From: Saccostrea cucullata
Taxonomy: Eukaryota
NCBI RefSeq assembly: GCF_032062105.1
Contig: NW_026932328.1
Location: forward strand, 372,001 to 436,000
Length of the DNA stretch: 64,000 bases
Direction of reading: 5' to 3'
This document shows, one piece after another, positions 22,734-47,543 of this stretch (position 1 is its first letter; each line of letters begins with the position of its first letter). A model generated the notes under the pieces. It ran no database searches and was not told the origin of the DNA. It worked only from the letters and a program-made list of their open reading frames with translations. The position numbers and the translations under genes are program-made.

Positions 22734-24610
22734 ATGGCCAAGTCGTCCGACAAACAGCTGACTTATCCATCGGAGGAGGTAAGTATAGATCTATTTTTGC
22801 AAGAAAGTTTTTGGAGGTATTGTTTCACACATACTTTATTTATAAACATATTTTAAATTCGCCTTGTCATAGTTCTGCTTAAGAAATTAAGCTGTGTTCT
22901 TCAAATTCGCCCAACCATGAAGAGAGCGAAAGGGGGTGAAAATAAAACGGGGCAAAAATTTCCCTATATATAGTTTTATTTTGAATACAATGACTTTGAT
23001 ATCTTCAAAATGCATGGGGGTCAATATTCGTGGATTGTTGATATTTTACAGGTTTATGAAGATGTAATTTCGTGTATTCATAAATATCAACAAACGGAAA
23101 TATATGTATAATAGGAATCCACGAAAACTAATGATATATTTCTCATTGTTTAAAAAAATAATTACCGACTAATTGGATTAATTCAATAATGTGATCTAGG
23201 TCGATCCATTCGAAGTTTTGTCTAAGAAGATTGGACATGGTGTAGAAGATGAATTAGAAGTTGAGAAAAAGACTTCTGTTCCAGAGGGGAAACTATTGGT
23301 AAGATATATTTCTAGGTACACATAACTAATGAATATATTAAGACTTTTGGTCTGCAATAAATTCAATGATTGATTTTAGAGCCATTTTGTTACGGGCAAC
23401 CAGGTACAGTTAGTCTCAAAAATAAGTGGGCGTTCTCTAAGGATTGTGCAGGATCGTGTAGGTAAACTCAAAGTGGACGGCAGGGGAGACCTAGGACAAA
23501 AAGAATGGAATGGTAACACTTTCTTTTAAATTTGTTTATTTATGTCATAAGAAAAATTATTGGGAAAGGGAGGACTTTTTTGATGTTTTCTATTCTGTGC
23601 TTATTTTCGATTTTGGGAGTGGGGATGGGTAGCATTGCATCCTGTGTTTGTCAATCAATTCATTGTTCTTTAAATGAAACACTACCCAAACTTAATCTTA
23701 TAACGCACATTACGTAAAAGTCAGCTTTCTATATTTTTTAATAAATGTGGATACGTATTTACAGTCTTACACTGTACTATGCCGTTTCAGCTGTCTGGAC
23801 AGTTATAAATGAAAAGCACAACATGGAGATTCGCCTTCATAATAACTTTAATTTCCTGTCTATAAGTAACGGAGAGACTAAAATTGTTCACGTGGTGAGT
23901 ACAGATTTGGTATTATCACTGTGGAGACACAGTTACAGACAAGTTTACATAAACAGTATATTTTTCTGTCAATTTGTTCTGTCATTATTTGTAATATCAT
24001 TTTTCATTATTAAAATAAACTAGAAAAACAAATATTTAAAGAATACTAGTACTACTTTCTGGTTTTTATATTCAATAACGTATCATTTTATCTGCAAATG
24101 ATTTACTTAAAGAAATAAAATAAATTCATATTAACATAACCTTCTTACCTATGGTGTATGGTTGACACAACTTTTAGCCCGAAGAAAAGGAGCACGATAG
24201 GTTGGATACGCTGTTTCTATTGGTTCTTGATCCAGAGAACTTCGTAGCCCTGGAGTCAGTGAAGGAACCTGAAAATTGTGTGGGGATAGAGGCAAACGGT
24301 TCCTTGAGATCGGCGGAGAAAACCTTTGTCCATGACGATCATGCCATGTTTGGTGTACATTTGATAGTAAGAATGTTTTGAAAATACTAAAAAATGCAAC
24401 AACAAAAAACGAATAAAATACAAATTGATGAATATGTATGCAGCTTTATTTTAAGATAAAACAATATTAACTCAGTAGACAACCACAGATATTCGCTTGT
24501 AGTATGATTTATGCCTTATGCAGCACACTAGTACTCTTGTTGATCTTTTGACAATATGTATAATATGTCTGATCATTTGTTTTCTTTTACAGAAGCCAGA
24601 TGCTAAATGA
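22734..24610 (+). CDS. Leaderless beta-trefoil-like protein, paralog A (~195 aa)
   Basis: Exons 22734-22778, 23200-23298, 23379-23511, 23791-23894, 24178-24366, 24593-24610. Translation: MAKSSDKQLTYPSEEVDPF...GNQVQLVSKISGRSLRI...AVWTVINEKHNMEIRLHNNFNFLSI...FVALESVKEPENCVGIEANGSLRSA...HAMFGVHLIKPDAK. Gene structure is supported by the colinear paralog at 43.7-47.5 kb; the fold is inferred from the three-fold repeat pattern. Confidence 0.78.
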
Positions 24611-25798
24611 ATTAAGAAGACATGGGACAGAGAGGTGTGAAAGCTTCCCAAATATTTAAAAGGCAACTCTATTGATAAGTAAACTAATTAATGAGATGAA
24701 CACAATGTATTGTTTTTCCATACTATTAATAACCTCACTATTTTCAGTGTTGACTGCAGTATATACACAAACAAATAAATGATACAGAAAACAATAAGTA
24801 TTCCAGAAAATCATGAAAATTGTACAACGTCTATAGATGTCTGAAAATTATTTAGCTAAATTGTTTTTAACATGGATATATATTTGTATTTTTTTTATAC
24901 ATATTAAGATTTTTTTATACATATTTAGATTTTTTTGTAATATAATTATGTAGCCTTTTTTATATTAATGCAAACAAATCTGGATTCATTTTTTTTTTAA
25001 ATATCAACGCCACTGATATTTTTTGTTGTAAGAGGCCGTCCATAGTGCACGTTGTGTTTTTTGATGCATAGATACAATTAAACTATGCTGTATTCGTATA
25101 ATGCTCTGAAAAATATAATATTGGAATTGAATAAAAAGTCAAGATATGAAGAGGTATATAATGTTGAATCCTTCAATTAGAATTTTCAATTTAAATAGCA
25201 TTTACAACCCTTTCAAATGCAGTCACTATTTGTATACACAATTATTTGCATAGAAAATAAATTAAAATGTGCACTGGAACATTTATTCGAAACCATTTTC
25301 CTAACACATTTGTTGTTCAATATGCATATTTATGATAAATGTTCTTCACTTAAGCATATTTCATACGGTTAGAATTATGCGAAATAATTATTTTTTTGCA
25401 TATTGTTTTGTCTGTTGTTCTTTAATCAGCAAGTATGGGACCACTCTAATTTAAACGTGGTGGCTTATTTGTAGTTGAATAAATGTTTAATATCTTGGAT
25501 ACAAGATTTCTGTTCTTATCTAAGAAAATGATATATATTTGTGTTAAGTGGTTAAACAGAAATGAAAATCTTGACATCAGTTTATTTTTCTTAAAGAAAC
25601 TTTTTTTTAAAGTCAAATATGAAAAAAAAAACTTGACAGTCACGAGTATCGTATATATGACTACTCTTAAATGTCTTCTTTAAAACATGATTTTTTTTTC
25701 CAATATAAAATTGTTCTAAGAGGATACCTTCATTTTTTCCCCTTTCATTAAAAATGAAATTAAAGTGAGATCGAAAACTGGTATATATCTTTGGCACA

Positions 25799-28700
25799 TC
25801 AAACTGAATGAAATAGATAATTTAAAATAAGGGATGTCAACGAACATTCAAATATTCATTCGGTGAGTTCTTATTCGAAAAGGACATTATGATTCGAATA
25901 TTCGTTTTTTTTTAAAAGTATACATGCATTTAAAAGAGAAACAGATAGAATCAGCATATAATTTAAAACAAAATTAATTGATACTACTCTTGACTAAGTT
26001 AAATGTTCAATTCAGGTTAAAACAGTATGAAAAAACATGGAGCACAGAAATGCATTTACCTGCGTTATCATCCACTACTTTAGCATAAACATTTTCTTGT
26101 CTGTAATTGTCAAGTTCATCATACTGGGATCTGTGAATGTAATATATATCTATATTTTTATCAAAAGATTAACTCAAACATGTAATATTAATCATTATTT
26201 CTTTATTTTATGTATGCGTTTTTATTCGCTTACCTTGAGGTTTGCTCTTGATCCTCTTGATGAACACCTTCTAAAACAAAGGAAATAATCATGCTTTTAT
26301 AGCATTAAATACAGGATAGATTTTTTGGTTTCTTCAAAATGTTAAGAGCTATCATTTCTGAAATTAACATGTTTTTCTCACAAGAAACAAATACTTTATT
26401 AACCACCTGTTCCTTTGGCGACGTCCAGATAATGATGGCCTTCTTCCTGAGTTATATCCTCCATCACATAGTCTGGATTTTTACTAGAATAGTTTACTTT
26501 ATAAGTTGGCCCTGAATTAAAGTGTAAAAGTTTTAACATGCATTCTCTGTAAGCACCAAAAAATTTACTATAGGGCTTGGAAACGACATATCTCCAATTT
26601 TGATGAAATTTGCACCACAGGTGTACCTTGGCACAAAACCAGCATATATGGTGTCAGAAGTTTCCCACGTGCACCTGGTTGCCATGGTGACGGATCCATT
26701 GAATTTGGCCATTTTCGGCCATTTTTGACCAAACAAATACATGAAAATTTAGGAAATATGAATGCATTTTTGTCTTTACGTAGTAGACTCAAATATAAAT
26801 CTTTGTATCATAAGAAAACATCAACTTTAAAGGAATACACGGCATATAATCAGTTATTTCAGAATTAACCCACTCTTAGAAAATGGTCCTGCAAAATGGC
26901 ATGGTTTCTAAAAATGTGAGAAATGGAAAATTTGGCATTTTTTGATAAATTTAAGGTTAAATAAAAAAAATTGTCTACGGAAATTTTTCAAATCTTATGC
27001 ATGTCGTCAAACATCAGTATAAGAAGTGTCTCCTCATGAAAAAATCGGAGTGGGATCTCAAGGCTATTTTTAGTAACATGTATCTAAAAATAGACATATT
27101 TCAGAAAAATCCAAAAAATGAAATTTTGGCAGAGTTTATGATGGCATTGCTAGGTAATTATGATATATACTGTAAAAGTCAATATGCCAATGCCAGAGAC
27201 TGGACACCAATAACTAAAACGCATATTATTTTCAGGGATTTCCGTTTTCTATTTATAGCTTCAAAGGTCTAAATATAGACATGTCTCATAAAATGCTGAA
27301 AAATGTCAATTTCCCATCATTTTGAAGCTTCACCAAGTCTTAAATAATAAACATACGGATCTCTCCAATATTCCATCAATAAGGACAAGGAATACTTTAA
27401 TAACTCACAAATTATTGAGGACAGGCTCTCATATCTATAAATAGTACAAATGTCTAAAAATAGACACATGTGAAGTTAACTGTTTAATGACGATTTTCCA
27501 TTAATTCTCAAATTAGAGATGAACAATTTACCCACTCAGTGTCATTAACTGCAACTGGCATAATGTGACTGACAATAACAGACGAACATTCAATGGAATG
27601 CAGCATGATAAGCAGAGGTTTCCATTTCTATTTATAGTAACACATGTTTAAAAATAGACATAATGCAAAATTTTGGATTAATGTAGTTTTTAGTACTTTT
27701 TTCTCAAAATTATGATGAACAATTGAAGACCATTTGTTTTTTAAAAACTGCTATTGGCATATGGTGACCAACAAGTAAAAGAAAGTATTATATGAAATAT
27801 AGAATGAGAAGCAGAGGTTTCCATTTCTATTTATAGTAACACATGTTCAAAACTAGACATGCTGCAAATTCGCTAGAAAATGTAGACTTTCGCTCTTTTT
27901 TCTAATATTTTGGGTGGACAATGTGCAAACGAGTGATTTTTATTTGTTATTGACAGAAGGTGACTAAAGAATATGAAATAGATTTAGCTAAAATGTATAA
28001 GAAGAATGTTTAATGGTATTTTTCCATTTCTATTTATAGTAACACATATTTATAAATAATCAGGAAGATTTAGAATCGTTCTTTTTTCTTATATTAGGGA
28101 TAGGGAATTTGCAATCAAACTTTCATTAGCTGTAACTGACATGGCTCATTGTATACGGCGCGCCAGCATGTCCATCTCATTACAATATCACAAAAGTATG
28201 TTCTCCCTGCATTAAAACACTCAAATGACAGCGATTATTATAATTCAAGCATTATTGCTTAAATTCAAGTCGACAGCCTGTGCCCAATAGCATTTTGTTT
28301 GTTAGGTGGATCCAGAAAAATTTTCCTTAGGAGGTGGTTGCTCATATCACAACGGTAAGAGGTCTGAGGCATAGCTTTAGTTAGATCATTACGTCAGTTT
28401 AAGTGAAAGTTGAATATTCAAGGGATCCCGGATTCCCATTTGATCCATGCATGCCTTACCACAATTTGTTCAAGAGTAATCCGAAATTTTCCCCAATGTT
28501 TTGAGTTGGCCCACTTTCGATTTCTCTCTCTCTGTACGTACATGAATATATTTCTCCAGACTTTAAATATATCATTGAAAAATATTAAGTGCTTTGGTAT
28601 TTATAAATTTTTTTTTACATATAAACATCCATGTAGGAGTTGGAACCTGGGGGGGGGGGGGCGGCTCACAAAAATAGACATCATATAGGTATAAACATTG

Positions 28701-31700
28701 GGGAGTAGATTTAGCCCCCCCCCCCTCCCTTTCAGCAGTCATGTTGCAGTGTAGTTGAAGAGTGTAAGTGGTAGTGTTTGAAAGAATAAAAATGGCACTG
28801 AAAGAAGATCCCCCCTCCCACGAAATAGGATTTCATGTTTGGACAATAGACACCCCCACCCTTATTATTTTTTCAGTTCCGATTTCCCCCCCCCCCTTTC
28901 ACCATAGATTCTAGAGTTTTACCTCCTTTTTAAAGACTTGATTCTTTGGTACGTTTTACAAGAACCCAAAAAGCCTGAATTGCTCTTCTGATAAATTGTA
29001 CAATCTATCACTTCTATTTGAAGCCTTTAACTCTAATTATTGTGAGACCAAACTTGCATTATCTGACAAAGTTTGATGATTCTTGGCCAATTAGGACTGA
29101 AGAAATTTTAATAAAGCTATAGAAAAAAACATAAGTAGGTCACAGTGACCTGTTTTTTGATAACTTGAAATGCATTAATAGACAAAGATTGAGGATTCTA
29201 AGGCAATAAGTATTTTATATAATAAATGTAGATAACTGTGATCTTCTTTTTTGTCTACATTCTCCGAAACCCCAATATGCATCAACTGACAAAGTTTGAT
29301 GATTCTAAGCCAATAAGTACTGGAGATACTTAAATATAGCCATAAAATGTCAAAAGTAGGTCACTGTGACCTACTTTTTGGTCGTCACTCTCCGAAAACC
29401 AAAGCTGCATCAACTCTAAGATATTTAAATATAGCCATAAAATGTTGAAAGTAGGTCATCTTGACATACATTTTGGTCGAAGGTTTTAAAGTTCCAAGAT
29501 GCGTCTACTGACTAAGTTTGATGATCGTAAGTCTGAAGTTAATCAAAATATGCCTTTTAAACAATTTGAAAACAAATGCCCACAAAATTCAAAAAGTAGT
29601 CACAGTGACCCACATTTTCATAAATATTTAATAATGTCCCAAGATGCATCAACTTACAAGATTTAATGATTATAAACCTCTCAGTGTCTGAATGGAATTT
29701 AATGTTTCAAAAAGGATAAGTCGTAAAGTTTAAAAGGAAGGTCAGGTGACCTACTTTTAAGTTTTGTTTGAGGACCGAAGACCGAAGATACATCAACTGA
29801 CAGAGTTTGATGATCATGGGCCTTAAAGTGTCCAAAATATGCCTTCAATTCAATTTAAACAAAATATACCCGTAAAATTTAAAAAGTAGGACACCGTGAC
29901 CTACTTTTGATTTAACATGTGAAGCCCTAAGATGCATCAACTCACAAGATTTTATGATTCTAGTCCTCATAGTAAGCAAAATATAAACGTTTTTATTAAT
30001 TCTAAATTAAGGTCAACTTGAAAGTGACCTTAAGACCACCGCCTTTGTCCCAGGGTAATTTCCCGTTGAAATATTAATCTTCACCATATCCTGATCCTTG
30101 TGTGTAAGTTTGATGAAAATCTCCCTGGTGGTTGTGGAGAAGAAATTTTTTTTTAGCAACCAGTACTTTTCGTTTTGTTTTCCTGATTACCTCCCCTTGT
30201 TTAAGGCTCTAAACCCTTATTTTAGTATAAATGGTAGTCCTTGGGCCAAGGATACGCTGTGTCAAATATTACACTGATTGGCCAAGGGGTTCTTGAGTTA
30301 TGGCCCATACTCTAAAAAGTTTACGCACACCACACAAATGGCCATAGCATTACAACCCTACTAATGTTATTGTGATTTAAATCCAAGACAAGTGGTTTAG
30401 GTTGATCTATTCTAAGGTTATAGGGTAGAACCGGTTTTATAAATAAAATTGGCAGTAAACATGATATTGCTATAGCCTGCTTCTTTTGAGAACATGTCCT
30501 GTAATAAATGTTTCCAGACCTTTCTGAAAGACTTTCATGATTTTCAACAGAAAAAATGAAAGAATGACTAAAGAAGGGGGTGATAGAATAATAATATATC
30601 TTTTACTTTTCGGCGAAAATAAGAGCTCACTAGTGACCGATTTGCTGGTAAAAAATGTGCGATATCATCTACACTGACAAACCTTTGTTTGCCTTATATG
30701 GCTATTGTTATAAATGCGCACAGAGGATCTTACCACGAGCAACTGACCAATCGTTGAAATGAATAGCAACATTTACGCCAAATATGTGTTTACATTTTAC
30801 TTCGAACAAGTAGTTCAGGTCAACCAGCAATCATGTTAATGGACTGCAAAATAAAAAAAAATGTTCTTACGAACAAAATACAAAGATAAGAAACTATGAA
30901 TGATATTACGGGCATTTAAATCACAGGACAAAACTTTGTTTACGTTCGTGATCACGTGTTCGGCCAGGGAATTCACCTGGCAATTGTATTCACCGATAGT
31001 ACAACTGTGAACAAAGAAATTAATACAGATGCAGTATGAATTTCAGAAACCTAGACTTCCGCCGTTTATTGAACAAATTAATTGTTTGTCATTATATCTA
31101 TGTGCATGAAAATAATTTTTTTAAAATGCTTTTCATTTACCATAAGATTTTCCTCTTTTTTCAAGCGTAAAATTTCTAAAGTATTCATGGTAACCCATAA
31201 TGCAACGCTCATTCAGCTGATTGGTCAGTTAAAATCATGCTTGTGCCTCATTTGCTAATCTGACGTCAAAAAATATAGTCCCGGTTCCCATGCAAAATAT
31301 TTGTCCAAAAAGAAATATCAATTCATGACTGCAGAAAATTGTATTAGAGAGAATACTTATTTAAGTTTGAATGAATGTAAAAGAGATCGATTGATTGAAG
31401 TAAATTTCTACACATTAGCTGATTCTAGGATGGTGAAAACTGAAACGCAACATAACTTTCCTGTTTACCATGCTTCCACGTGCTAGTCACTTCCTAGCCA
31501 CATTTCCGTAAATAATTTACCCTATCTCGCTGAAGTCTAGATTACTCTCGCCAGAGCAACTGCCAGAGCTACTCTGGACTCATCGGGTTTTATAATTTGC
31601 AGAACACCGAAAAATAAAAGGTTCCGAACACATTAGTAGGGGTGCATTAGTTCTTTGAACCTTTGACTCAGAAAAGCTAAAAATACTAATACTACTAAAA

Positions 31701-34700
31701 ATTAACTTGTCTTTATGAGAGGATGGACATTTACTTTAGTTACAGAAATGGCTTTTCTAATAATAGGCCTTAAAAACAAAATTTTGGTCAGAAATATCAA
31801 TTTATTGATTGATTGTGTGTTGCTTAACGTCCCTCTCGAGAATTTTTCACTCATATGGAGACGCCACCACTTGCCGGTAGAGGGCTACAAATTTTGTCCT
31901 ATGTTCGCACTTAGGGCCTTTGAGCAGTGAGGGATCTTTTTCATGCCAGCACCTCCTGCGACACGGGGCCTCGGTTTATACAGTCTATTGAAAAATCAAA
32001 CAGAGAAAAAGTCTTATCCCTTCATCTAAGGATACTTTGCGGCAAGTTTAGTTGAAATTAACACAGTGGTTCTTGATAAAAGATGAAAATGTTAAAAGTT
32101 TCCAACGAGAACGACAACGACTGACAACGCACAAATGATCATAAAAGCTCACATGAGCCTTTATTTTAAAACATGTGTTACTAGAAATAGAAATGGAAAC
32201 CCACATTATTATATATTTCGGTTACTGCTCTCTTGTACGTGTCGGTTACATTATGTTAGTTACAGCTAATGAAAGTTTTACTGCAATTTCCTATCCCTAA
32301 TTTGAGAAAATAGAACGATTCTACATTTTCTTGATTAATTGCTGAATGTCTATTTATAGATATACGTTACTATAGGTAAAAATGGAAAAATACCCTTAAA
32401 CATTATTCTTTTACATTTTAGCCAAAGTTTTCTCATATTCGTTAGTCACCTTCTGTCAATAACAAATAAAAATCACTTCTCTGCAAATTGTCCATCCCAA
32501 ATGTTAGAAAAAAAGTGCGAAAGTCTACATTTTCTCGAGAATTTGCAGTATGTCTATTTTCAAACATGTGTTATTATGAATAGAAATGGAAACCTCTGCT
32601 TCTAATTCTGTTTTTCATATAATGCTTTTTTTTACTTGTCAGTTACCAGTTAAAAACTTATTGTCTGCAATTGTTCATCCAAAATGTGAGAAAAAAGTAG
32701 TAAAAACTTCTTTTTTTCCGTTATTTTGCAGTACGTTTATTTTTATATATGTGTTACTATAAATAGAAATGGACACCTCTGCCTATCATTCTGTATTTCA
32801 TATAATGCTTTCTTTTACTTGTTGGTCACCATAAGGCAATAGCAGTTAAAAACATATAGTCTGCAATTGTTCATCCAAAATATGAGAAAAAAGTAATAAA
32901 AACTACATTTTCCCTATATTTTGCAGTACGTCTATTTTTAAACATGTGTTACTATAAATAGAAATGGAAACCTCTGCTTCTCATTCTATATTTCATATAA
33001 TGCTTTCTTTAACTTGTTGGCCACCATAAGCCAATAGCAGTTTAAAACATATAGTCTGCAATTGTTCATCTAAAATATAAGAAAAAAGTACTAAAAACTA
33101 CATTTTTCCGATATTTTGCAATACGTCTATTTTTAAACATGTGTCACTATAAATAGAAATGGAGACCTCTGCTTATCATGCTGCATTCCATTGAATGTTC
33201 GTCTGTTCTTGTCAGTCACATTATGTCAGTTGCAGTAAATGACACTAAGTGGGTAAATTGTTCATCTCTAATTTGAGAATTAATGGGAAATCGTCATTAA
33301 ACAGTTAATTTCACAATTGTCTATTTTTAGACCTTTGTACTATTTATAGATATGAGAGCCTGTCCTCAATAATTTGTGAGTTATCAAAGTATTCCTTGTT
33401 CTTATTGATGAAATATTGGAGAGATCCGTATGTTTATTATTCAAGACTCGGTGAAGCTTCAAAATGATGGAAAATTGACATTTTTCAGCATTTTATGAGA
33501 CATGTGTATATTTAGACATTTGAAGCTATAAATAAAAAACGGAAATCCCTGAAAACAATATGCGTTTTAGTTATTGGTGTCCAGTCTCTGGCATTGGCAT
33601 ATTGACTTTTACAGTAGACATCATAATTACCTAGCAATGACATCATAAACTCTGCCAAAATTTCATTTTTTGGATTTTTCTGAAATATGTCTATTTTTAG
33701 ATACATGTTACTAAAAATAGCCTTGAGATCCCACTCCAATTTTTTCATGAGGGGACACTACTAATACTGACGTTTGACGACATACATAAGATTTGAAAAA
33801 TTTCCGTAGACAATTTTTTTAAATTAACCTTAAATTTATCAAAAAATTCCAAATTTTCCATTTCTCACATTTTCAGAAACTATGCCATTTTGCAGGACCA
33901 TTTTCTAAGAGTGGGGTTAATTCTGTAATAACTGATTATATGCCGTGTATTCCTTAAAAGTTGATGTTTTCTTATGATACAAAGATTTATATTTGAGTTT
34001 ACTACGTAAAGATAAAAATGCATTCATATTTTCTAAATTTTCATGTATTTGTTTGGTCAAAAATGGCCGAAAATGGCCAAATTCAATGGATCCGTCTCCA
34101 TGGCAACCAGATGCACGTGGGAAACTTCTGACACCATATATGCTGGTTTTGTTCCAAGGTGCACCTGTGGTGCAAATTTCATCAAAATCGGAGATATGTC
34201 GTTTCCAAGATTTTTTGGTGCTTACAGAGAATGCATGTTAAAAGTGATCACGAAACATACATGTTTTCCGTTACTTAAACATCTTTCTCCACACAGCTTA
34301 CACCTAAAATAGATCTAATGTATTTTTTATAAACATCGAAGTTTAGTCGTGCTATTATAAGAGTTTTCCATGTTTTACGCCTCTTTTGTAAAAAAAAATA
34401 TATATACATCGTTATGATAGACCTATTCAATATAAACCGAATAATAAACCTTCCAATTCTAAAACTTACGGCTTACAAAATAATTTTTCCTTTAAAACTT
34501 ACAATTTTATACACTTTCTGAAATAACACATTTAGAAATATATACATGTATAAAAGAGAAAGAAAGTAAGCTACAGATAAAATATTTTTATCTGGGTATG
34601 CTTTACCTCTATTTTGAAGACACTTTCTGGTGATGATAAATGTCATCAGACATATGCAGGTCAAAAGGAAAATTCCAAAGAGCGAGCCAAACACAGAAGC

Positions 34701-37700
34701 AAGAGATGCAGATTCTATATTCAAAAGTTGTCAAGATAGTGGTTTATACATCAAAATTAGTCTTCAAGTATGAATAAGAAATAGATGTACATGTAAACAG
34801 AATTAATAAGGAAATCTCAAGTTGATATCTCAGAGAATCTTCTGGACACATTAAAAACAGTTTCAGTCAAATTGGAGAGCACATATGTGTGCACTCCATT
34901 GATTTTTAAGATATATTTTATGAAGCAAAAGTACCAAAATTTTAAGAAATGTAATATTCACATGCATGGCAATGAAAGCGTAGCAGGAAAAATACTGACC
35001 TTTATCCAAATTTCTTATTGAACAAGTGTCTTGTACAGGAACAGATTCTCCGTATTTATTCACAGCAATAAGAGTAAATGTATAAAATTGATTTTCCAAA
35101 TTAGGAATAATAGTACTGATTCCCGATATAAGAGAGGTATTCATTTGAGGACCAGTGACTGTTTTGTGTGATAATGTGAAAGTTTGTGCTACTCCGCCGT
35201 CAGATCCTGGAATCCAACTAATAAAAGCCATCCCCTCTATTGAGCAAAGAAGGGACATATTTTGTGGTGCATCTGGTACGCCTGGAATATATAATATTAA
35301 ATATATATATATTTTTTACTTTTATTATTAATACTGTTCCATTTATCTTAAAAAAAAGAACTATTAACATTTAAAGAAAATACATTTACCTTCTGGGATA
35401 ATGAGAACTGTAGTGAGGAAGGATCCATGGTCATTGCTAACATTTGCTGTATAATAACCAAACTCGTCTGTTTGAAGGGAATTCTTTTTATAACTAACAG
35501 AAAATGTTGAGATGTTTGCTGCTGTTGTCATATTTGTGTTCCAGAAATTACTGGCTATATACTTTTCTGCTGAAGTACTAGATTTCCTAAAAGTCCATTG
35601 GATGGAAGGTACTGGGTATGCTAAATACTTCGCCGAAAATACAAGCTTATTTGATGACATTTGTTGGAAGAATTGTCCATTTAGAGATCTTGGTTTACCT
35701 TTAAAATTGTTGTTGAAATAAAGATAATTAACAGAAAGATCGTATGAAAAGAAAACAAATAAAAGAAAACATGCTTTTAATTATTTCCCTTCCATGTAAT
35801 AATTTATGAGACTCAGAATTTATTCACTGGACAATTGAAACTTAAGTCTTAAGTGTTTCATCGGAACTATTATTAAAATTATTACCTGGTCCAACTATTA
35901 AACTACCGGTAGTAAATTACAAGTTATTTCAAATTAAGTGATTCCCCTACATACATCTTACGTATAACTCCACTGGAGTAGATTCTGAGATTCCTATAAC
36001 ATTCTTAGCCAAGCATATATAAACTGCCGTCTGGAAACACTGAGCTGAGTTTTCTGTAAAATTCAGAATGAATACACCCTGTCCTCTGCTGACAACCTCG
36101 CTGGTGTTTACATTCTGTATGGTTATGTTGGTAGATCTAGGACTGTTTACAATACAGTACATTACGAACCGAGATAGTTCACTCACGACGTGTCCACCAA
36201 CTATAGTAAAATTCTCTATTTCAGGACTATCTGAAACAATTCATGAAACACACAAACAATTCCTACAATGGTAATTTCTCATACATTTTCTTGAAATTAA
36301 AATATGATTCAAATCTTTTTAAGCATATAAAATTTAGTAAGTTATTTTCAAGGTTTGAGAGAAAAAAACATTTGATTAAATTATCGGTAGTACTTGAATT
36401 AAATGATATCACAACAACGTTTGCTACTTTGTGACGTTGTTAGCCATAATTCAAACATATACATGTATTTAAGTCTACAATTAATAAAAAAAGATTCCAT
36501 TCTATCTTTATTCAGTTCAGGAGCATCCACACAACGACAGGGGTTTTGAGTCCACTCGTGGCCGTTAGATTCCCGAAAAACTTTCCGCGGACATGCTTAC
36601 CTAAATTAGAAACTCATCCATTGGGCGTTTTCATAGACTGGTAGGTTGTAAGAATTTGACAGTTAAATGTACATATCATATTTTTGTTTGTCTAAAAGAG
36701 ATTTATTTTGGATGATTCATTGATAAGCAAAATAGATTAGAATTAGTAATTTTTCAAAAGATTTGTACAAACGTCAGGAACCTATAAGTTGTAAGGATGG
36801 CTGAATAGATTTTGAAATAACCTATAACCATATACTTACACATTCTTTCTTATATCCTCTAAAAAAGGATCTTGAAAATCATAGTTTCTTGTCTTTTTCA
36901 ATAGAAATATGATTGACATTGACCCAGTAGAGCTAATAAAACAAGAGCCCCGTAGGCCATAACGCTCAACTTAATCCTTTTGGTCACTTTAGTTCTTCAT
37001 CAGCAGAATTTTCTGTTATATATCTCTTTGGAAAACTTAAAAGCTTTTAGTGGCAACACCACGTCACTATATATACCTGTACAGCTGTATATACTTCTGT
37101 ATTACACGTTATATGATAAATCACGCCTCTGCCATTATACAGAAGATTTTAAAGACTTGAATGCTATGTATTCCTATGGGTATCTTTGATCACTTATTAT
37201 AACCTCATCTTACCCACAGAGGTTATCTTTGAAAATTCTTCGCTTTCTGTACATGCTTTTATATAAATACATGTAAATGTTGTTCTTTAGAAAAATATTT
37301 TTCTATATATTAAAACTTATACTGACCAAGCCTAAAGCCATAAGTTTAATTTCAAAAGTTTTTCTGTACTAGTATAATAATTGTTTTCGTTTTATTTTTT
37401 TATTTAATTATTTCGATTTTTATTTTCTTATTTTGTTGTTTTTTTTCGTTTTGGTTTGTATAGTTGGGCTTCAATACTCCTGAACAAGTGGTTCTTGAGA
37501 GGTCGAAAATGTGAAAAAGATAAATACGAACGTACATGAACCTCTTCGATTAAGAAAGCTCATCTGAACCTTTGGTTTAGACGAATGTTATTTTAGTTTG
37601 ATTTTAATATATTTCGAAAAATGTAAAGAAAAAAAAGTTTCTGAGTGAATATTTGTAATACTGGTACATACATACGACTTCCACATTAATAGTAGATGGT

Positions 37701-39030
37701 ATTGATGTCCCAACGGCGTTACCAACGGTACACTGGAAAGTCCCTTGGTCGGACTTACGCACACTAGAAATGGTGTAGGTCTGACTAGTGCTGATTTGAT
37801 TGCCTCCTTTAGTCCATCTGTAGTTTAATCCTGTGCTTGGGTTTGCATCATCAACGAAGCACTTTAACTGAAGATTGCTGTCACCCAGTTTTGCAACAAC
37901 GTTTGTTGATGGTGTGACGTAGATTTCCGGCACATCTTTAAAAGCAATGGCCAAAAATATACTTAGTAAATATGTTTACTGAAAGCTAAGCACAGAAACA
38001 CTTACCCTAACCCACATACAGAGAGAGAGAGGGTAAGGAAAAGAGAGAATTAATCTAATTACCAGACATTAAGCTAATGTTAAAATCTTACACAAAACAT
38101 TTAATACTTCCTCGTCACTTGGGTCGGAGAATAATCCTCTCTCTTCTTTGGCTGTACACTGAATTGTTGTCCCTTTATCTTGTTTTTTAACTTTGTTAAT
38201 CATCAAAATACTACCTCCGTCTCCTGTAATTCTGAAGCGAGAGTGTGTGATGTTAGCGTTATTCACGGTCCAGATATAGGTGATAGGCAGACTCGTGAGT
38301 GGAACTGATGTGGACATAGCTGAACAGGTCAAGTTCTGCACAGTGTTCGAGATGATTTCACTATTCACATTAATAGTAGGTTTACTTGGAGGAGCTGATT
38401 GAAATTAATACATTACTTTCTCAAATGTCTGTAAGTTGTGCATGACAGTGTTGTATTGTAAATTTTATTTGACATAAAGAATATTGTTTCTTTTTTGATC
38501 TGCATTGTGAAAAAAAAATATGAAAAAAACTTACTCATGACGAACAGCGTATTATTCGTTATGACTGAGCTTATCGATAATTGTGCAAAGTATACTCCAG
38601 CATCAGTTGTGTTAACATAGTTGGTAAAACAGATATATACTCGGTTTTTTGATGTTTCCACATTACATGTTACCCTTCCTCTGTAGTCAACATTGATGTC
38701 TATAAATGGATCAGAGTCAGGAATGCCAGCGAGAGTACATATAGTTAAATTGTTGAAACTTAAAAATATTACAAAATCTTCTGGTATGCTTCGAGACATT
38801 GAAATATTCAGACATCCTGGAGAGCCTTCTTTAACATAGGCAGGTTCCTGTAATTCGGCTGTAAAATAAATTGTATTTATGGAAACAATTATATACATTG
38901 CAAAAATTACGTCCAGGAATTTATCTTATAACATATTATACATGCTATAAGCATACTTGCCTTCACTGATATATATATGCAGATAGAAAATGAAATTCCA
39001 AATGAGAATTAATAGGCATTGCACCTCCAT
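25799..39030 (-). CDS. Type I membrane receptor: signal peptide, 5 Ig, FN3, TM, Tyr-rich cytoplasmic tail (717 aa)
   Basis: Twelve exons sum to 2154 nt in frame: 39030-38961 (signal peptide, GC donor), 38858-38535, 38394-38092, 37935-37672, 36230-35955, 35698-35390 (Ig, phase 1-1), 35281-35000 (FN3: ISWIPGSDGG...YTFTLIAVNKYGES), 34714-34607 (TM), 26511-26407, 26270-26234, 26130-26060, 25803-25799. Confidence 0.8.
29030..30340 (-). repeat. Tandem array (~170 bp units) of a Helentron-type element nested in the foldback element
   Basis: Units 'aagtaggtcactgtgacctacttttt...aagatgcatcaactgacaaagtttgatgattct' recur about 6-7 times. Confidence 0.6.
31800..31985 (-). mobile_element. tRNA-derived SINE, 3' part
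   Basis: Reverse complement of the core and tail of the SINE at 40170-40452 (gtctccatatgagtgaaaaattctcgagagggacgtt...caatcaatc). Confidence 0.7.
36939..37590 (-). mobile_element. Degenerate Helentron-type element in a receptor intron
   Basis: Ends 'aacaagagccccgtaggcc' and 'aaagctcatctgaacctttggtt' resemble the 19692-20906 family in reverse orientation. Confidence 0.5.
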
Positions 39031-39299
39031 GATTATCTTATCAGTAAAATCTTCCTGTTTTGTCCTGAATTTAACGATAATAATGCTTTCATGCTTAATC
39101 ATTATTTACTTCCTCGTGTGCTGTTAGCTACAATATACAACATGACAATTGATTACACATATTCTGTACCTTTAACAAGATAGATATATGACATACTAGT
39201 ATCTTTGTATGGGCCAGTGTCGTCTGTGATCTTTTCATAGTAGCAGAGATGGATGTCAGAATATTAGGATAACGAACGATATTTAAACTTAAAAGTCTA

Positions 39300-39830
39300 T
39301 TCAAACAATACAAATCATGAGCAGAGCAATCGTGGGATTCTAAAACATCAGAGGTTGGATCATGTGCCATGGAGAAGTGATCATCCTCTCCTGACTGGTC
39401 ACATCCGCCGTGGGCTCCTTGTTTGATCGGGAATATAAGGAAAAATCCGTTCACAATGTCGTAAATACTCAGTAATGGCCTGGCAATTACATGTACATGT
39501 AGTTTAATTGAAAACGTCCATCAGCATTTGACATAATGATAGATTGTATTCGCTGACGAAGTCATTGTATTGGCCTTAGAATTTGCATAATGATGACTTA
39601 AAACACAATTATCTTGTTTGACGATTACCTACCTCGTTTTTAGGAATTGCTCATATGTTGAGCATACTCTTGCGTATCGAATCAAGTGAGATATATAATC
39701 TCCGTATGCAGGTGATGAACGTATATTGCTGCAAAAGTAAGGAAAGTAGACGACTGAAAATTTCAAAAAGTCATCATGTTTATCACAAAGCTGTGTTAAT
39801 AGATTACCATTAACGTCTCTTTTTCTAGTA
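39300..39830 (-). mobile_element. Penelope-like retroelement relic (RT C-terminus and 3' region)
   Basis: Translates ...LCDKHDDF.KFSVVYFPYFCSNIRSSPAYGDYISHLIRYARVCSTY, the C-terminal RT motif of Penelope-like elements; truncated. Confidence 0.7.
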
Positions 39831-40169
39831 AAATAAAAATGTCCAAACATAAAGCCTTTATTATGTAGCTTAAACATCTCCCATTGATTTATATTTAATA
39901 TTTCAATCAAATAACTCAATTTAATATGATTAAGAGTTTTTCAGTATCGGTATTTAAATTTAGTGTATGTATATTTAATATCGCATCTATCAAATGACCC
40001 GTCCAAGAGTTACTAGTATGATTCGCTTGTTTGAGGTTTCATTGACGGTAATACGTACTAGATCTACATTAGTTTTTAATAATTGAATTTTGTGTGAAAA
40101 TAAAAATTTCTTACCTAGCTGCTACGTAATATCTATCATAAATTTCTCTTGCTGGGTTGATGTCGCCTG

Positions 40170-40452: not shown

Positions 40453-40984
40453 CGGGTTGACCAGGCCAGGCGACATTTTTTGTTTACAACGGGGCGTTCG
40501 ATACTGACCGCTCGTATTCGGAATGTTTCTGACACACTTAGTATAGATCTACGTAATACAAACTCAGCGTTCAATAAAATGCTAAGATATTGATCGCTAA
40601 GTATTCTACTATTAGGCTAGTAGATTTTTATTAGGCTATAGACTATTTATTAGCTATTATACGCTCCTCGGAAAGACAACATTCATTTCGTGGATTGACC
40701 TTTGGTGCACTTTTATGTCATCTAATGCAAAATGACGTCATATCAGTGTACTAGTACACTATTGCTGCCATGAGAAAAAATTGGTGAAGAAGAACAGACA
40801 ACGTAAGTGCTTTTTATATCACATTTTAACGTTCTAGGCTATAATTATAAGGATTGATATTTAGATACAATTAAAAAATAGAAACCAATCGCTAGAAAAA
40901 AGATAAAAATATAAAGCAATCGCTGAGCCTTATTATGGTTTATTGCCTTATAAATACATGACAAGCCAATCCATTTCGAGAAGG

Positions 40985-41150
40985 CCGGTCAGCTCTAGAA
41001 TCGCGGATTAAGGAGTTGATCCTAACGTCGCTGGCTCGAATCCCACTGGGGGACGTGGTAACCGGTTCTTCTTATGAGCCCGTATAAACTCTATGGTCCT
41101 GTGTCGCAGTAGGCCCTAGTTGCTGGCACGAAAAAGATCCTTCACTGCCC
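40985..41150 (+). mobile_element. Second, truncated copy of the same SINE
   Basis: Colinear similarity to 40175-40335, including B-box GGCTCGAATCCC. Confidence 0.7.
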
Positions 41151-41214
41151 CTAAGAGTTATCTCCCGTTGTCAGCGTAACACTAATTTTTCACACTTTGT
41201 CCTTTGTAAGTTAA

Positions 41215-41535
41215 TTATACCCCCCGTTTGAAAAGTGGGAGGGTATACTATAACCGGTATGTCTCCGTCCGTCCGTCTATTACGCTTTGGGGTACCCATC
41301 TCTTATCCGCAACTCCTCTTATAGTACCACTGGTACTGGGTGAAATTTAATGAATCTTTCACAGAATCTTATTAATTACATATTGCCATTGTGCACCTCC
41401 TTTTTTAATTTTTGATCCGACACATATTTTGAGTTTCCCGGCCACAACAAAACATGAACTTTGCCATTATAACCATATGGGAGGCGGAGGGTATCATTAA
41501 AGTAATGAGCACATTGCTCACTGTACCTCTAGTTG
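41215..41535 (+). mobile_element. Short Helentron-type element
   Basis: subTIR ATACCCCC / GAGGGTAT, (CCGT)n microsatellite, and a 3' hairpin TGAGCACATTGCTCA before ctagtt. Confidence 0.6.
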
Positions 41536-43680
41536 TTAATATTTTTAATCTTCAAACGTTATCGGGCGATTTCGAACTGTAACTATATCGCCAGAGTATT
41601 GGGCAACATGAAAAACATAATGAACATATTTGTACAGATTTTATTTCTAAGATACTGACTCATGAAGATGGTAAGGTTATAGAGGGAAAACAGTGTCTTA
41701 CGCCGGTTGACCCCGGATGTGAAAGTCGTCTATGGCCGTTAGTCAAGTGCCGAGATGTAGCCCGGCCTCCACCGGCAAGCGATGACATCTCCAAATTTCT
41801 CGAGATGGACTCTAAACAACCAACAGTGAATCAATCGAGAAGACCAGAAGAATATATTTGGCACATTTGTTTAGTTTTTGACAAATATTTTATATATATA
41901 TAGGAATAAAGACCGTTGCTTATAAATCATTTTACAAAGGTGGTACTGCGGTATCGTTACTAAAACGGGGAAAAAATTATCAGAAAACTCAAAACGACAA
42001 AAGACCACTGTTTCTTTAATGTTTATAAAGTTTACGCATTTTATTGGGCCGCCCAATCTAAAAAGTAATTAAGTAGACGAATTTTATTCCCTTTTAATAA
42101 ACATTATGGTAAGTCTACTTAAAAGGTTATTTATAAAAGTTAAACATTTCTTATTTTCAAAGAAAAAAAAGGAAAAAATGTTTAAAAGCAAAACTTCAGA
42201 GTAGAGCATTGATAATTTTATTTTAAAAATGCATTGACTCATAAGGACACGAGGTCAGATTTCAAATTCAAATATGACACTGTTGTGAAGTGCACAGAAT
42301 TATCAGTCATTATGTAACCATAGATTTTATCACTATTGTGAAAAGTAATCCCGACTGAGACGGACCTTTTGTATGTGTTTGTTGGGGGACGGGGATATAG
42401 CTAATTATGCTGTGTTATTTAAAAATTATTTCAGCTATCTTTCAGTTCCTAAACGGGTTTATTAATCTAATGTATACAATGTATACCTGGTGTTAAACAG
42501 TTTGGATTTTAAAAATAAAAACAAAGATGCATGGTCATTGACGAGAATTTTTGGTATGAAGAATTTACCTTGGAAAAGTCAATAAGTCATTCTTGTATCT
42601 TACAATTGATAAACAGTAGTTGCGGTATTTAAAACTTCAAGATTCCGTCATAATCCTAAGATATCAAGCGTCTACAAAGGTAAGGAGAGAAAAACAATCT
42701 ATATAATATCTTTGTTTATAATAGAAATGTAGTCGTTCAAAAAAGACAAGATTTTTATCAAAAGTACGTATTGGTGACTCTAATTGTCCTGGTTCTTTTT
42801 TGTTTGTTTGTTTGTTTTTTTATTAGACAAAAACGCGCAAAAATTTTACCTTTTGTTACAATATTTATTTTGTACAGAGCGATGGTGACCATTTGTGGAT
42901 ATTTTAAGAACGAAAAGAAAAATCAGTGAACATTGAAAATTTGTTTCATTAATTTGAGATTAAGATGATAAAGTATATTTAAAATGAGGACGATTTCATC
43001 CTTTATGAAGTGCAAAAGAACCATTTAAGGGTGTTTTGTCGGTGGAATTTTAATAATGCATTATATTTTCACTTTTAACAATGGGATAAGAGATAAAATA
43101 TGCTGGTACAAAACGAAATTTATATCGCTGCATGGCTACAAAAAAATTTTAATCAATTAATACAGGCATAAACTCTCTGTAAAATTATAACATTCAATAG
43201 ATCAATACTGTTTTGAGGTACGGTTTGATTAAGGTTGTGGAATTTAAGATCTGTTACCGTTTTCTTCAGATGGCACCAACATTTGGTGCGTGTCAGACCG
43301 ATAACAGATACCCTTCTACATGGTATCTTTCTAGAGTAAACATGCAATGGATAAAAGAGGTTTAAGCTGGTCTAAGACCTTTAATTTAGCGAAAATCTAA
43401 GGTTTTTACTTATTAATACAATGATAACAGTTCGATGTTTAGTTAATTCACCTGATTACGAGGAAGAAATCTTTTTATTTATTTATTTGAAAAAATAAAT
43501 ATTTAAGAGAAACACTTATGCTTTCATAGTTTCATGCATATTTCACATCTTTTCCTCCCTCTCTTTCTCTCTTTCTCCTCGACCAATAAAGAGACAGAGG
43601 GGGGGGGGGGGGATCTGTACGAATTAGAAATATAAAAATCAACTTTTTTATTATCAATTATGCCCAGTTCTGCAGTGACG

Positions 43681-46600
43681 ATGGCACAAACATCAAACAG
43701 TCAGCTGACCTACCCTCCAGAAGAGGCAAGTATATTTTCAAAGATTATCTGTTTAGTAACTTTAGTTTGTAACATCGTATGAAAAATGTGACTGTTTTCA
43801 TTATTATCAAGTTCTGTTAATTATTAGCATACTTTTAAGTAATTAACATTATGTACATCAAAAAGTTTTCTGATACCGATATGATAATAGATATACTAAT
43901 ATCTGTTTTGGTGCAAGTGGACCAATTACTGCTAGGCATGTTAACAATGATATTGGAATGAATCTTTAATCCAGGTTGATGCATTGAAAATGTTGTCTAT
44001 AAACCAACACAAACTTGGACATGCTGTTGAAGAAGCTTTAGAAGTCGAAGAAAAAACTACCATAAAAAAGGGCACTCTGATGGTAAGATTTTTATTGTTA
44101 CATATATTTATACATTAACACACGTTTATTTCTTACTACGTGAGAGGTGTCGACAATCTGGGGCTGAAATTATGGGTTATTTCTCATTACCTATAAAATG
44201 TATCAACATTATGGAAGGTTAAACAGTGTGAAAACCACAGGTACTTGTGGACAGGACTAGACAGGACCCCCCCCCCCCCCTCCCGATATTCAACCCCGGG
44301 GCTTATTGGATATTTTTTTCACAAATTATATTTAATACACTTATTCATCATATGTACAGTATGAAAAAATCGTCAAAACCCCAAAACAATCGCTCCACAA
44401 AAAAAAAAAATACTCCACTATACATTATCTCCCTTATAATGTATAGTGGGATATTTTTTTGTGGTGCGATTGTTTTGGGGTTTTGACGATTTTTTTTATA
44501 TTGTACACGTGATGAATAAGTGTATTAAATATAATTTGTGAAAAAAATGTCCTGCTCCAATAAGCCCCGGGGTTGAATATCGAGGGGGGTGGGGGGGTCC
44601 TGTCCACAAGTACCTGTGGTGAAAACATGGTGATTTCAACTTTTTGATCGTCTATTAAACTTCCGCTATCCTCTGGTGTTTTTTTTTTTACATTTCCAAA
44701 CTTAATCAATACTGAAGAACATGCTCTAGATATGACCAGTTTTCAAAATAACAGATACGTTAACATCAAAGGGATTTCAACAATCTTGTTAAAAAGCAGC
44801 ATTTTGTAAATTCTTTGGTCGTTATGATGACCTTATTAAAAAATACAACCGAATACTGGGTCCTATATGGGTTAATAATGTGTTTCATACCAATGGTACT
44901 AAAGACAATTGTTTGCAATTTATTTATTCATATATGTATTTTATTGTGGTTTTAGTTCCCCTAGACATACACAAGAACTGAACAGTATCTATTTTCAACA
45001 GACTAAAAAAACATTTCAGATTTGCTTAATCAGCTGTTTTTTTCTCTCAAGGAGTGATAAACTAGAAGTATAACTACATGTGAAATATTATTAACAAATT
45101 AATTCGCATTTTTGATGCGATTAGACATGCATGTATATACATACCATTTCAGAGCAATTTCGACACTGGCAACCAGGTCCAGTTGGTCTCAAAAGCCAGT
45201 GGGCGAACTTTGAGGATAATCCAGGCTCGGTCTGGTCAACTTAAAGTGGACAGCAGGGGAGACCTGGGCGGGCAGGAATGGAATGGTAGTTTGTTAACTA
45301 TTAATATTTCATAATAATACTGTATAAAGTCATGTTTAGGAACTCTTTTATCATAAGTGTACTCCTTTTTATCAGTAAATAAAATAATTTTAATCTCACT
45401 TGTTTAGTAAAGAGTAAGTTTAAAAAAAAAAAAAAAAAAAAACATTATCAAGAAAACGATTTCATTGTTCATACATTTTATTTTAGCTGTATGGACAGTT
45501 ATTAATGAAGGTCACAATCAGATTCGCCTTCACAATAACTTTAACTTTCTGGCAATAGTAAATGGCGAAACCACTGTTATACATGTGGTAAGTATACAAA
45601 TTATTACGGGTTATTTTATTTTACTCTACTACAACAAAATATAAATAGGTGGAATTATTTTGGTAGTTCATGAATATTTAAAATAAAAACTTTAAATTTA
45701 CTATAAATCACCATAAATCAAAATTTAAATTTTTGTTAACGATGTACTATAAATCTATCACATAAGTCCTCCCAGGATATATCGTTACATGTATAATGAT
45801 TTTTAACACTCAGCTTATGCATTTTTGATATAAACAGGAATAATAATTTGCATTTCAAAGGTCCTACCTCTTCGGACTAAATGCTTAAAATGTGTGTGTG
45901 GGGGGGGGGGGGGGGTGTCAGCTTATTATCTAGCATGTACACCTAAACGAGTAGCAGACAAACTGCGTGTTCGGTCTTTATATTAATTAAATGTACCTGT
46001 TTACCCGGTATTTAATTTCTGCTAGTATTATTTTTGAAAAAGTAATAATTTGATTAAACAGTTTCGTCCCTTGGGCCAAGGGTTCAACCCCAGAATGAGA
46101 CTGATTATAATTTGAAAACATGGTATACCAATATTTTTTTAAAAAGTCTTCTCGACTCCAGAACTCGTAAAGCAGAAAAGATGTAGTAAAGTGAATGATT
46201 GTATTAGAATTGATTTACACGTCCATTTATCATGGGTTTGACCCCAGAATGACTTAAGGCAAAACGACCCTCTGATAAGAATTTTAATTTCCAAACAAAA
46301 TAACATGCTGTAGGTTAATTTGTCAAACTAGATATTAATAATTTAAGAACCATTCCGGGGTCTTCCACTTGCCCATATAGGATTTGGGCTTCTTTCAAAT
46401 AGCTAAAACTCTCCCTTTCCTGTAAGTACATTTTCTTCTTAAATTATTTTTTTATATGGATGCATATTTACTTAAAACGAATGAATATATATGTCACTAG
46501 ATATTATTTTTAAAATTGTTCATGTTGTGATGATAAATCTTTCTATTCATTGTGTCAAATATTCTAAATATACCATCCAATAGATAAGGCTCATGGAGGG

Positions 46601-47543
46601 TGTGACCGGTTAACAAGATGCTTACTTCTCAAATTCACCTGATCCAATTCTGGATTTCCGCGGATTCGTATTTATGCCCTGTTCACAGAATTGTATTGTT
46701 TGTAGTTTTATTTTATGTGATCGATCGCTCTTTCGCCCTACTTAAAGTGCTTGTACGATGAAATGAGTATCAGTTGCCTTCATTGCTGAACACCAACAGA
46801 CAAACCAATGATGATTATACCGAGCTTTTGTCATCTAGTAAACCTATGAAATTCACACCCATATTGATTATATCCATTTCCTCAAGGTTCATGTCACAGG
46901 ATAGGGTTTCAATGCATTACCTAGTTAGTATAAACTATAATTAATTTCTTTTATTTACCACTAAGCATTAACGGTCGAAGGCAATCCTATTATTGTATAT
47001 TAATTACAGTGTATTTAGTAAATTGTATATTATTGTTTATCAATTAACCAAACATTTGAGTTAATTGTTAATTTTCCAAAATCTTTTGGAATCATAAATT
47101 TTTTTTTAATTACTTCTTCATTGTTTATGTGTTTATATGTTATTGAATAAATGTTAGCAATAAACCTTATTCTACAAATGTGATATTAATTGATTTTAAT
47201 GGGTGTATAAGGATTATGCTTTAGGAAAAGAAGCTTCGTATAACAGGGTTAGTGTCTTAGGAGATTTTTTTCAGATCTCTGGTACACAGATTGTTTGACT
47301 ACATATAAAAGGCTATATGACAACAGAATACTCATGTTCTGTTTCATATTTTAGCCACAGGGATCTGAACATGATAAGCCAGAAACCAAGCTCCAAGTTA
47401 TCATTCATCCGGAGAGCTTTGTGACCTTGGAGTCGATGAGGGAACCGGAAAAGTGTATAGGAATACTGGACAGTGGGTCCCTAAAGTCAGCAGAGAATTG
47501 TACCTGTCACGACGACCATTCCATGTTTGGAGTACATTTGATA
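43681..47543 (+). CDS. Leaderless beta-trefoil-like protein, paralog B (last exon not resolved)
   Basis: Exons 43681-43725 (GC donor), 43975-44082, 45153-45285, 45487-45587 and 47355-47543 have the same intron phases as paralog A. Translation: MAQTSNSQLTYPPEEVDAL...GNQVQLVSKASGRTLRI...AVWTVINEGHNQIRLHNNFNFLAI...FVTLESMREPEKCIGILDSGSLKSA...HSMFGVHLI. The terminal exon may lie near 50205. Confidence 0.78.
44236..44618. mobile_element. 383-bp fully palindromic MITE with 8-bp TSD
   Basis: Arms of ~190 bp (CACAGGTACTTGTGGACAGGAC... / ...GTCCTGTCCACAAGTACCTGTG) around a 7-nt spacer. GTGAAAAC is duplicated at 44228-44235 and 44619-44626. Confidence 0.88.

Follow-up and report, generated by a model that had tools for sequence, protein, structure and literature searches.

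In a 64,000-nt stretch of the genome of the oyster Saccostrea cucullata (contig NW_026932328.1, positions 372,001 to 436,000 of the forward strand; hereafter the window), two paralogous genes, A and B, flank a gene encoding a transmembrane protein with Ig and FN3 domains. Sequence comparison shows that A and B arose by tandem duplication in oysters, within a bivalve-wide, unnamed family, and their products are probably FGF-fold, FGF-related proteins. Our tentative reading, which we put at slightly below an even chance, is that A and B act intracellularly as membrane-associated adaptors and that the Ig/FN3 gene probably lies in the array with no functional tie to them.

Structure of Genes A and B

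Gene A (+), the Ig/FN3 transmembrane gene (-) and gene B (+) follow one another across the locus. This order and these orientations, as given in a first-pass annotation of the sequence, were confirmed by exon models, by NCBI proteins and by the splicing of A and of the tail of the Ig/FN3 gene. The features of A and B are:

22734..24610, +, gene A, predicted leaderless FGF-fold protein of 195 aa; exons 22734-22778, 23200-23298, 23380-23512, 23791-23894, 24178-24366 and 24593-24610
23791..23894, +, central trefoil exon of A, 104 bp, phase 1 to phase 0 (compare FGF5 exon 2)
21530..21560, +, 3' part of the 5' untranslated exon of A; an RNA contig with a loose end at 22723 matches this part, which is followed by a GT donor
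43681..49879, +, gene B, paralog of A, 195 aa; exons 43681-43725 (GC donor), 43975-44082, 45153-45285, 45487-45587 (101 bp), 47355-47543 and 49868-49879
42625..42679, +, candidate 5' untranslated exon of B, best local match to the 5' exon of A

The translation of the six coding exons of A matched XP_062572919.1 of Saccostrea cucullata at 100%, and that of the six exons of B matched XP_062572920.1 at 100%. The two proteins are 64% identical, and both genes have intron phases 0,0,1,0,0. The match between the candidate 5' exon of B and that of A is weak, with a score of 49 compared with at most 47 in 100 shuffles. A GC donor at 43726 (+) follows the first coding exon of B. The span first proposed for the cassette (22734..47543) has the correct start, but its end falls short, since the last exon of B reaches 49879.

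A hydrophobic leader was found in neither protein, in agreement with the earlier claim that both paralogs lack a signal peptide. The N-terminal net charge is -4 in A (50 residues) and -3 in B (53 residues); thus, both N-termini are acidic. The N-terminal segment of about 50 aa and its acidity in A were described correctly in the first-pass annotation, while the restriction of acidity to A was not upheld.

Splicing was checked in RNA contigs from four of nine listed runs for positions 22500-26560, a stretch outside B and the ectodomain of the Ig/FN3 gene. These contigs show neither strand, nor expression level, nor a single transcript. Four junctions of A were spliced in 4/4 runs and the fifth in 2/4. 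The tail junctions of the Ig/FN3 gene were spliced in 2/4 runs, both of which also contain A; for contigs, their absence from the other two runs carries no weight. A single contig runs from the spliced receptor tail through its 3' untranslated region as far as 24666 and also includes the spliced 3' end of A. This fits a convergent overlap of the 3' ends of the two genes (window positions 24593-25105).

Predicted Fold and Kinship with FGFs

An AlphaFold2 model of A was built on a 33-row alignment of the family; a fold from a mere two-sequence alignment, with a predicted local distance difference test score (pLDDT) of 34, was not used. The model reached a pLDDT of 82.6 overall and of 86–97 across the blocks of residues 51–190, and an FGF-type beta-trefoil is predicted to span residues 52–191. 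In a wide fold search against 48,161 representative chains, from which the best 50 rows were taken, the eight best rows all belonged to the FGF family (Z of 17.1–19.9). FGF18 (4cjm) matched with a Z of 19.9 (root-mean-square deviation (rmsd) of 1.4 Å, 126 aligned), FGF8b with 19.0, FGF4 with 18.5, FGF10 with 18.4, and FHF1b and FHF2A with 18.2. Structures of FGF1 and FGF2 gave 18.6–18.9 (18.9 for FGF1, 18.8 for FGF2), and the rmsd of FGF18, FGF8b, FGF1 and FGF2 was 1.4–1.7 Å. In comparison, non-FGF trefoils reached at most 16.6 (lectin-type) and 16.5 (fascin), while IL-1beta scored 13.8 (2.8 Å, 133 aligned) and IL-1alpha 13.5. IL-18 and IL-33 lay outside the best 50 rows and are not thereby excluded. 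All of the 42 matches listed by Foldseek were FGFs, and viral FGFs ranked first in a library of viral structures. The modelled fold thus supports the beta-trefoil proposed in the first-pass annotation, of a cytokine/growth-factor type that resolves to the FGF side, ahead of fascin and IL-1. The three-fold sequence repeat reported along with it was not recovered: a profile comparison of the trefoil thirds gave no alignment, in a weak test run without context libraries.

At the sequence level, the family profile aligned with FGF18 colinearly and from end to end, but weakly (E of 0.059 and 0.075; about 20% identity). The Pfam FGF model (PF00167) matched 5/17 family members, with a best E of 0.0016, below the cut-off. 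This cut-off was exceeded (25.8 bits) only when the matches were summed over the fused five-trefoil model K1R5R9 of M. gigas. A search of the PDB with the single sequence of A gave 0 matches at an E of 10. IL-33 aligned with the family profile over about 40 positions only (E of 0.8–1.1). Matches of the profile to coronavirus protease (E of 0.6–0.8) were partial and were taken as chance.

Gene structure was compared with FGF5 alone, whose exon 2 has 104 bp after 364 coding bp (PMC2754481). The central exon has 104 bp in A and 101 bp in B and runs from phase 1 to phase 0, so that the central intron phases of A and B (1 and 0) equal those of FGF5. The central introns of A presumably match FGF introns exactly in position. 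The likeness to the FGF family (FGF18, FGF8b, FGF1 and FGF2) lies in trefoil geometry, in a weak colinear sequence match and in the 104-bp central exon.

The ESM Atlas left the family unsettled, because A and the core of a scallop member gave different neighbours. For A, an IL-33 cluster (0.92) and an IL-18 cluster (0.91) stood near the top, with 163–169 shared features, below the tool's mark of 170. The scallop core was placed near bacterial trefoils and RicinB, fascin-like and fungal lectin clusters (0.90–0.93). The latter neighbours would suit cytosolic lectin-like or actin-binding trefoils that are FGF-like in shape only, a reading that we regard as unlikely. Pfam matches to RicinB_lectin_2 (7/17 members), CDtoxinA (6/17) and Fascin (1/17), with E of 0.0008 to 0.005 at best and thus no stronger than those to the FGF model, point in the same direction, as does UniRef, where one Mytilus protein of the family is named 'Ricin B lectin domain-containing'. 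However, the best lectin and fascin rows lay 3 units of Z below FGF18, at a higher rmsd. R-type lectins carry QxW repeated in three subdomains, whereas the A/B family has at most one QxW per chain, with none in A. Fascin consists of four tandem trefoils, whereas A and B have a single trefoil per gene and an FGF-like exon.

A Bivalve-Wide Family in a Tandem Array

The range and synteny of the family were assessed from the window and from database proteins. Of 3386 candidates screened with the family profile, 23 were hits. Those with names, 13 in number, are all from bivalves (oysters, mussel, scallop and Dreissena) and are all labelled 'uncharacterized'; a literature search with the family's gene and protein identifiers and keywords found no description, subscription journals and most supplements being outside its coverage. 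Core identity to the non-oyster members (mussel, scallop and Dreissena) is 46–50% for A and 56–61% for the oyster PPxY type. A tree of 24 rows grouped A and B with two M. gigas types in a single clade (99/97), itself nested within an oyster clade (98/99). PPxY motifs were present in 5/15 members, and the older members start with a Pro/Tyr/Gln-rich segment. An N-terminal amphipathic segment, whose hydrophobic moment exceeded that of shuffled sequences (p ≤ 0.013), was found in 11/15 members.

K1R5R9, an old fused model, comprises five trefoils and a helix-only part on a single strand. By position, A corresponds to its first copy and B to the copy directly before the helix-only part. Between the A-like and B-like copies, at residues 195–578 of K1R5R9, lie two further M. 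gigas trefoils whose N-termini are long and amphipathic. A six-frame search with hidden Markov models between A and B revealed no counterpart of these two trefoils; the Ig/FN3 gene is found there instead. The window also contains a sister gene without a trefoil:

60956..62829, +, helix-only sister gene, 135 aa, seven exons with GT-AG sites

Its product contains three copies of the N-terminal helical module of the family. It is 60% identical to residues 687–795 of K1R5R9, and it matches the N-terminus of PPxY-type members with 41% identity over 34 aa (E of 2e-5). A resemblance to amphipathic-helix stress proteins of the LEA/HSP12 type was seen in its M. gigas counterpart, which matches Pfam HSP9_HSP12 with an E of 0.0008, under the cut-off; in contrast to those proteins, the helical module here derives from, or is common to, the N-terminus of the trefoil family. 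Annotation also places a paralog of the PPxY type on a contig equal in size to that of A and B. Given the copies in K1R5R9, the helix-only gene and this paralog, the bracket of A, Ig/FN3 gene and B is a slice of a longer tandem array.

Features Required for FGF Signalling

Columns were counted on 31 rows, two partial proteins having been removed beforehand. Heparin binding of FGF1 is located in an extension of the last turn (T11; PMC9062101). The heparin-loop stretch contains 1–3 K/R in 31/31 family rows compared with 7 in FGF18; A has 2 (plus 4 D/E) and B has 1, and the stretch is acidic in both. In the weak alignment with FGF18 (E of 0.075), the column facing the core cysteine is Thr in 31/31 rows, the Glu that follows this cysteine faces Leu/Val/Met, and a first-strand Tyr faces Val/Ile. 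In FGFs, this Glu and Tyr are FGFR contacts. The A/B family therefore lacks several features of FGF members, since the heparin loop, the core Cys and the Glu/Tyr contacts all differ. It further differs from FGFs by the N-terminal helix and PPxY module and by the tandem array; neither of these two modules is known from FGFs.

These differences bear on the reading that A and B, like FGF1/2, leave the cell despite lacking a leader and, independently of heparan, activate or block the canonical FGF receptor kinase of the oyster. FGF1 and FGF2 have no leader, as is the case for A and B, and the FGF-type fold, matched well by FGF1 and FGF2, and the FGF-like central exon agree with such a role. FGF1/2 have also been proposed for the protostome ancestor (PMC3420111). 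With the acidic heparin loop, the replaced core Cys, Glu and Tyr (in a weak alignment) and the foreign PPxY and helix modules set against these points, we regard a role as FGFR ligands as rather unlikely.

Comparison with IL-1anc

The published invertebrate IL-1 family IL-1anc has an N-terminal PDZ domain that is absent in a minority of members (Fontenla-Iglesias et al. 2026, PMC13736523). It is similar to A and B in having a leaderless trefoil with LES, of the (F/L)ES type, on strand 9, as well as two central introns, tandem copies and an Ig-domain gene nearby; the phases of these introns in A and B, 1 and 0, also occur in FGF5. Further marks of IL-1anc are induction by infection and cleavage by caspase. 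In A, LES occupies residues 152–154 on the strand 149–154, and across the family the motif is well kept (L in 26/31, E in 29/31 and S in 31/31 rows). Together with the IL-33 and IL-18 clusters near the top of the ESM Atlas neighbours of A, these likenesses would suit PDZ-less IL-1anc members that act as inflammatory cytokines via a TIR receptor encoded elsewhere, and PDZ-less members and possible misses are acknowledged by the authors (PMC13736523). Nevertheless, this identity is very improbable, and in our assessment A and B are not IL-1anc. No Pfam PDZ match was found in 17 family members, and the N-terminus of A and B comprises just 50–53 residues. All seven bivalve IL-1anc entries carry PDZ, A and B are not among them, and the two C. 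virginica entries are loci other than the two of the A/B family. The fold of A is nearer to FGF18 (Z of 19.9) than to IL-1beta (13.8) and IL-1alpha (13.5), a comparison made with the IL-1alpha/beta structures rather than with IL-1anc models. The ESM signal, already under the mark of 170 shared features, was not repeated with the scallop core, and the neighbouring gene lacks TIR. A trefoil fold is by itself no proof of IL-1 kinship (PMC5861070).

The Ig/FN3 Receptor-Like Gene

The gene between A and B encodes a member of the immunoglobulin superfamily (IgSF) with a transmembrane segment (TM):

25083..39030, -, IgSF transmembrane gene, about 721 aa in 12–13 exons: candidate signal peptide, five Ig-sized phase-1 exons, FN3, TM and tail
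39030-38961, -, candidate signal-peptide exon, GC donor at 38960, from our own model
38858-38535, 38394-38092, 37935-37672, 36230-35955 and 35698-35390, -, Ig exons
35281-35000, -, FN3 exon
34714-34607, -, TM exon
34279..34303, -, micro-exon, donor TT here, not GT
26483-26407, 26267-26234, 26130-26060 and 25105-25083, -, tail exons
24666..25082, -, 3' untranslated region, running into the 3' end of A (RNA contig)
26537..34237, no strand assigned, foldback-type element of 7.7 kb, inverted arms of 872 nt at 94% and 296 nt at 97%, TTAA on both sides

In total, 630 residues are identical to NCBI XP_062572933.1, and the protein is 77% identical to S. echinata XP_061188677.1 (57/83 in the tail). The two N-termini proposed by NCBI disagree with each other, and both are without a leader; exon 39030-38961 is the preferred candidate. 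Per-exon Pfam searches matched Ig2 (6.7e-6), Ig3 (1.1e-11), Ig5 (0.046) and FN3 (0.025), and no Ig match was obtained for the exons Ig1 and Ig4. A scan of the full S. echinata ortholog detected no kinase and no TIR domain. Matches in the PDB were generic Ig matches only, the best being Dscam (E of 1.5e-10). NCBI's automatic names refer to nephrin, SYG-2 and turtle-like IgSF proteins, which share Ig domains, FN3, one TM and a tyrosine tail; the receptor differs by its five Ig-sized exons and one FN3, and no orthology was shown.

Past the micro-exon, the NCBI model enters a stop and has no tail. The route from the micro-exon to the tail agrees with the S. echinata model and with an RNA acceptor at 26483, and an alternative in-frame acceptor lies at 26511. 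The TT donor may mean that this allele makes no tail, that the assembly is wrong at this point or that splicing uses the 26511 acceptor. The foldback-type element is located in the intron between micro-exon and tail and has internal repeats of about 195 nt. The tail of about 83 aa keeps 6/6 tyrosines in both Saccostrea species. Both also share one SxYxxL of the consensus of the immunoreceptor tyrosine-based inhibition motif (ITIM) and a YxxL-x8-YxxV pair, which is a relaxed and not a strict match to the activation motif (ITAM), both being plain pattern matches with no chance control. Because tyrosines and motifs are kept, the tail is likely functional in S. echinata. The Ig/FN3 receptor with tyrosine motifs described in the first-pass annotation is thus corroborated by its Ig/FN3 exons, its single TM and its tail with six tyrosines.

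The same annotation had joined the three genes into a candidate immune ligand-receptor cassette. On this reading, damage or infection would set A and B free to signal via the neighbouring receptor, its tyrosine tail recruiting SH2 proteins. Several observations would suit this: adjacency and orientation, a trefoil of the cytokine/growth-factor type, the conserved tyrosines, SxYxxL and YxxL-x8-YxxV, the presence of A and the receptor tail in the same 2/4 RNA runs with their 3' ends joined in one contig, and the loss of PPxY and helix features from A and B. A precedent exists in IL-1anc: several invertebrates show linkage between its genes and putative IL-1R genes (PMC13736523). However, the family is older than oysters, whereas the receptor exons matched Saccostrea only (two matches among 24 candidates, in a weak, word-limited search). 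A and B are two among many members of the array, and the receptor lacks TIR and kinase, unlike the IL-1R and FGFR precedents. In this assembly a TT donor precedes the tail, and an Ig gene beside an array is presumably not rare in an Ig-rich genome. A predicted complex of receptor ectodomain (583 aa) and A trefoil (150 aa) scored 0.00 in two runs, in which controls were not folded and alignments were unused, so that it speaks neither for nor against binding. Of the cassette, the adjacency stands; what went beyond adjacency is not supported, in view of the larger array, the older family, a receptor without kinase or TIR, and older members that look cytosolic. Nothing in the results shows an immune role. 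We therefore consider the cassette improbable, and the Ig/FN3 gene is likely a neighbour of A and B rather than their receptor.

In a more elaborate version, an FGF-derived bivalve lineage would have given up heparan sulfate and FGFR, and the A/B clade would have shed its anchor to become released danger signals. These would be read by the Ig/FN3 receptor of the same array, which has neither kinase nor TIR but an ITIM/ITAM-like tail, with co-regulation via the overlapping 3' ends. We hold this to be a long shot; if true, it would be a third kind of trefoil cytokine system besides FGF-FGFR and IL-1-IL-1R.

A Possible Intracellular Adaptor Role of A and B

The reading of A and B as intracellular, membrane-associated adaptors combines three modules of the family. 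First, the N-terminal amphipathic helix would dock the protein on a lipid surface. Second, the PPxY motifs of older members may recruit WW-domain proteins, as PPxY motifs do, for example ligases of the NEDD4 type. Third, the trefoil may bind a protein partner in the manner of the intracellular FGFs FGF11–14 (FHFs), in which it serves as a protein-binding module; FHFs bind the tails of voltage-gated sodium channels. They are leaderless and share the FGF fold, but are just 14–15% identical, with no sign of orthology and an N-terminus unlike that of A and B. FHFs are suggested as the best functional analogue of an intracellular trefoil binding module. Duplication in oysters would then have divided the modules, one copy retaining the helix only, and the A/B clade, having lost PPxY and with a weaker, acidic helix region, may represent a looser, soluble and least anchored form of the trefoil.

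A number of points weigh against this adaptor role. A and B carry no PPxY, their hydrophobic moment is not significant (p of 0.10 and 0.19), and residues 22–44 of A were modelled at a pLDDT below 50 with no long helix. The membrane step is therefore weakest exactly for A and B. FGF1/2 and IL-1 are exported although leaderless, so the absence of a leader does not establish intracellular action; localisation, lipid binding and partner of A and B are predicted only. For A alone, the Pfam FGF model gave 14.7 bits compared with the curated cut-off of 24. As for the Ig/FN3 gene as an unrelated neighbour, its absence outside Saccostrea rests on the weak, word-limited search mentioned above. In M. gigas, three numbers (105346991-993) are available for two trefoils between LOC105346990 and LOC105346994, the numbering not being reliably positional. 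A receptor on the opposite strand of this interval is possible, because K1R5R9 covers genes of one strand and one id is spare. Moreover, in S. echinata the receptor and all three trefoil types are annotated on a chromosome of one same length, and one RNA contig joins A to the receptor gene at their 3' ends.

The FGF ligands reported from spiralians fall into two types, FGF8/17/18 and FGF9/16/20 (PMC8180254, PMC3420111). A third, leaderless lineage with a predicted FGF fold and the FGF exon pattern, bivalve-wide (46–61%) and expanded in oysters, would broaden the FGF-fold repertoire. The adaptor role would add a further, independent instance in which proteins of the FGF fold do their work without FGFR. 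For searches for IL-1anc, it matters that a leaderless invertebrate trefoil with LES need not be IL-1. For testing, the locus offers a protein that is small and soluble, a sister gene with the helix only and an adjoining candidate receptor.

Upstream Genes and Decayed Fragments

Upstream of A, neighbouring genes or exons were located at 1085-1627 (-), 6950-8100 (+), 10046-10306 (+), 11338-12767 (-) and 16034-16957 (+). They presumably include GABPA-like and ATP synthase coupling factor 6-like genes; the others are an exon without a Pfam match, a PIH1-domain gene (Pfam E of 0.0014) and a single-exon NHL-like frame (E of 0.11). By inspection, none of these neighbours is GCC2, ESD, TRAF3 or EIF2A. 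Decayed fragments at 39628-39940, 48625-49093 and 55406-56042 are repeated in introns and spacers, and we take them to resemble GIY-YIG/reverse-transcriptase ends of retroelements.

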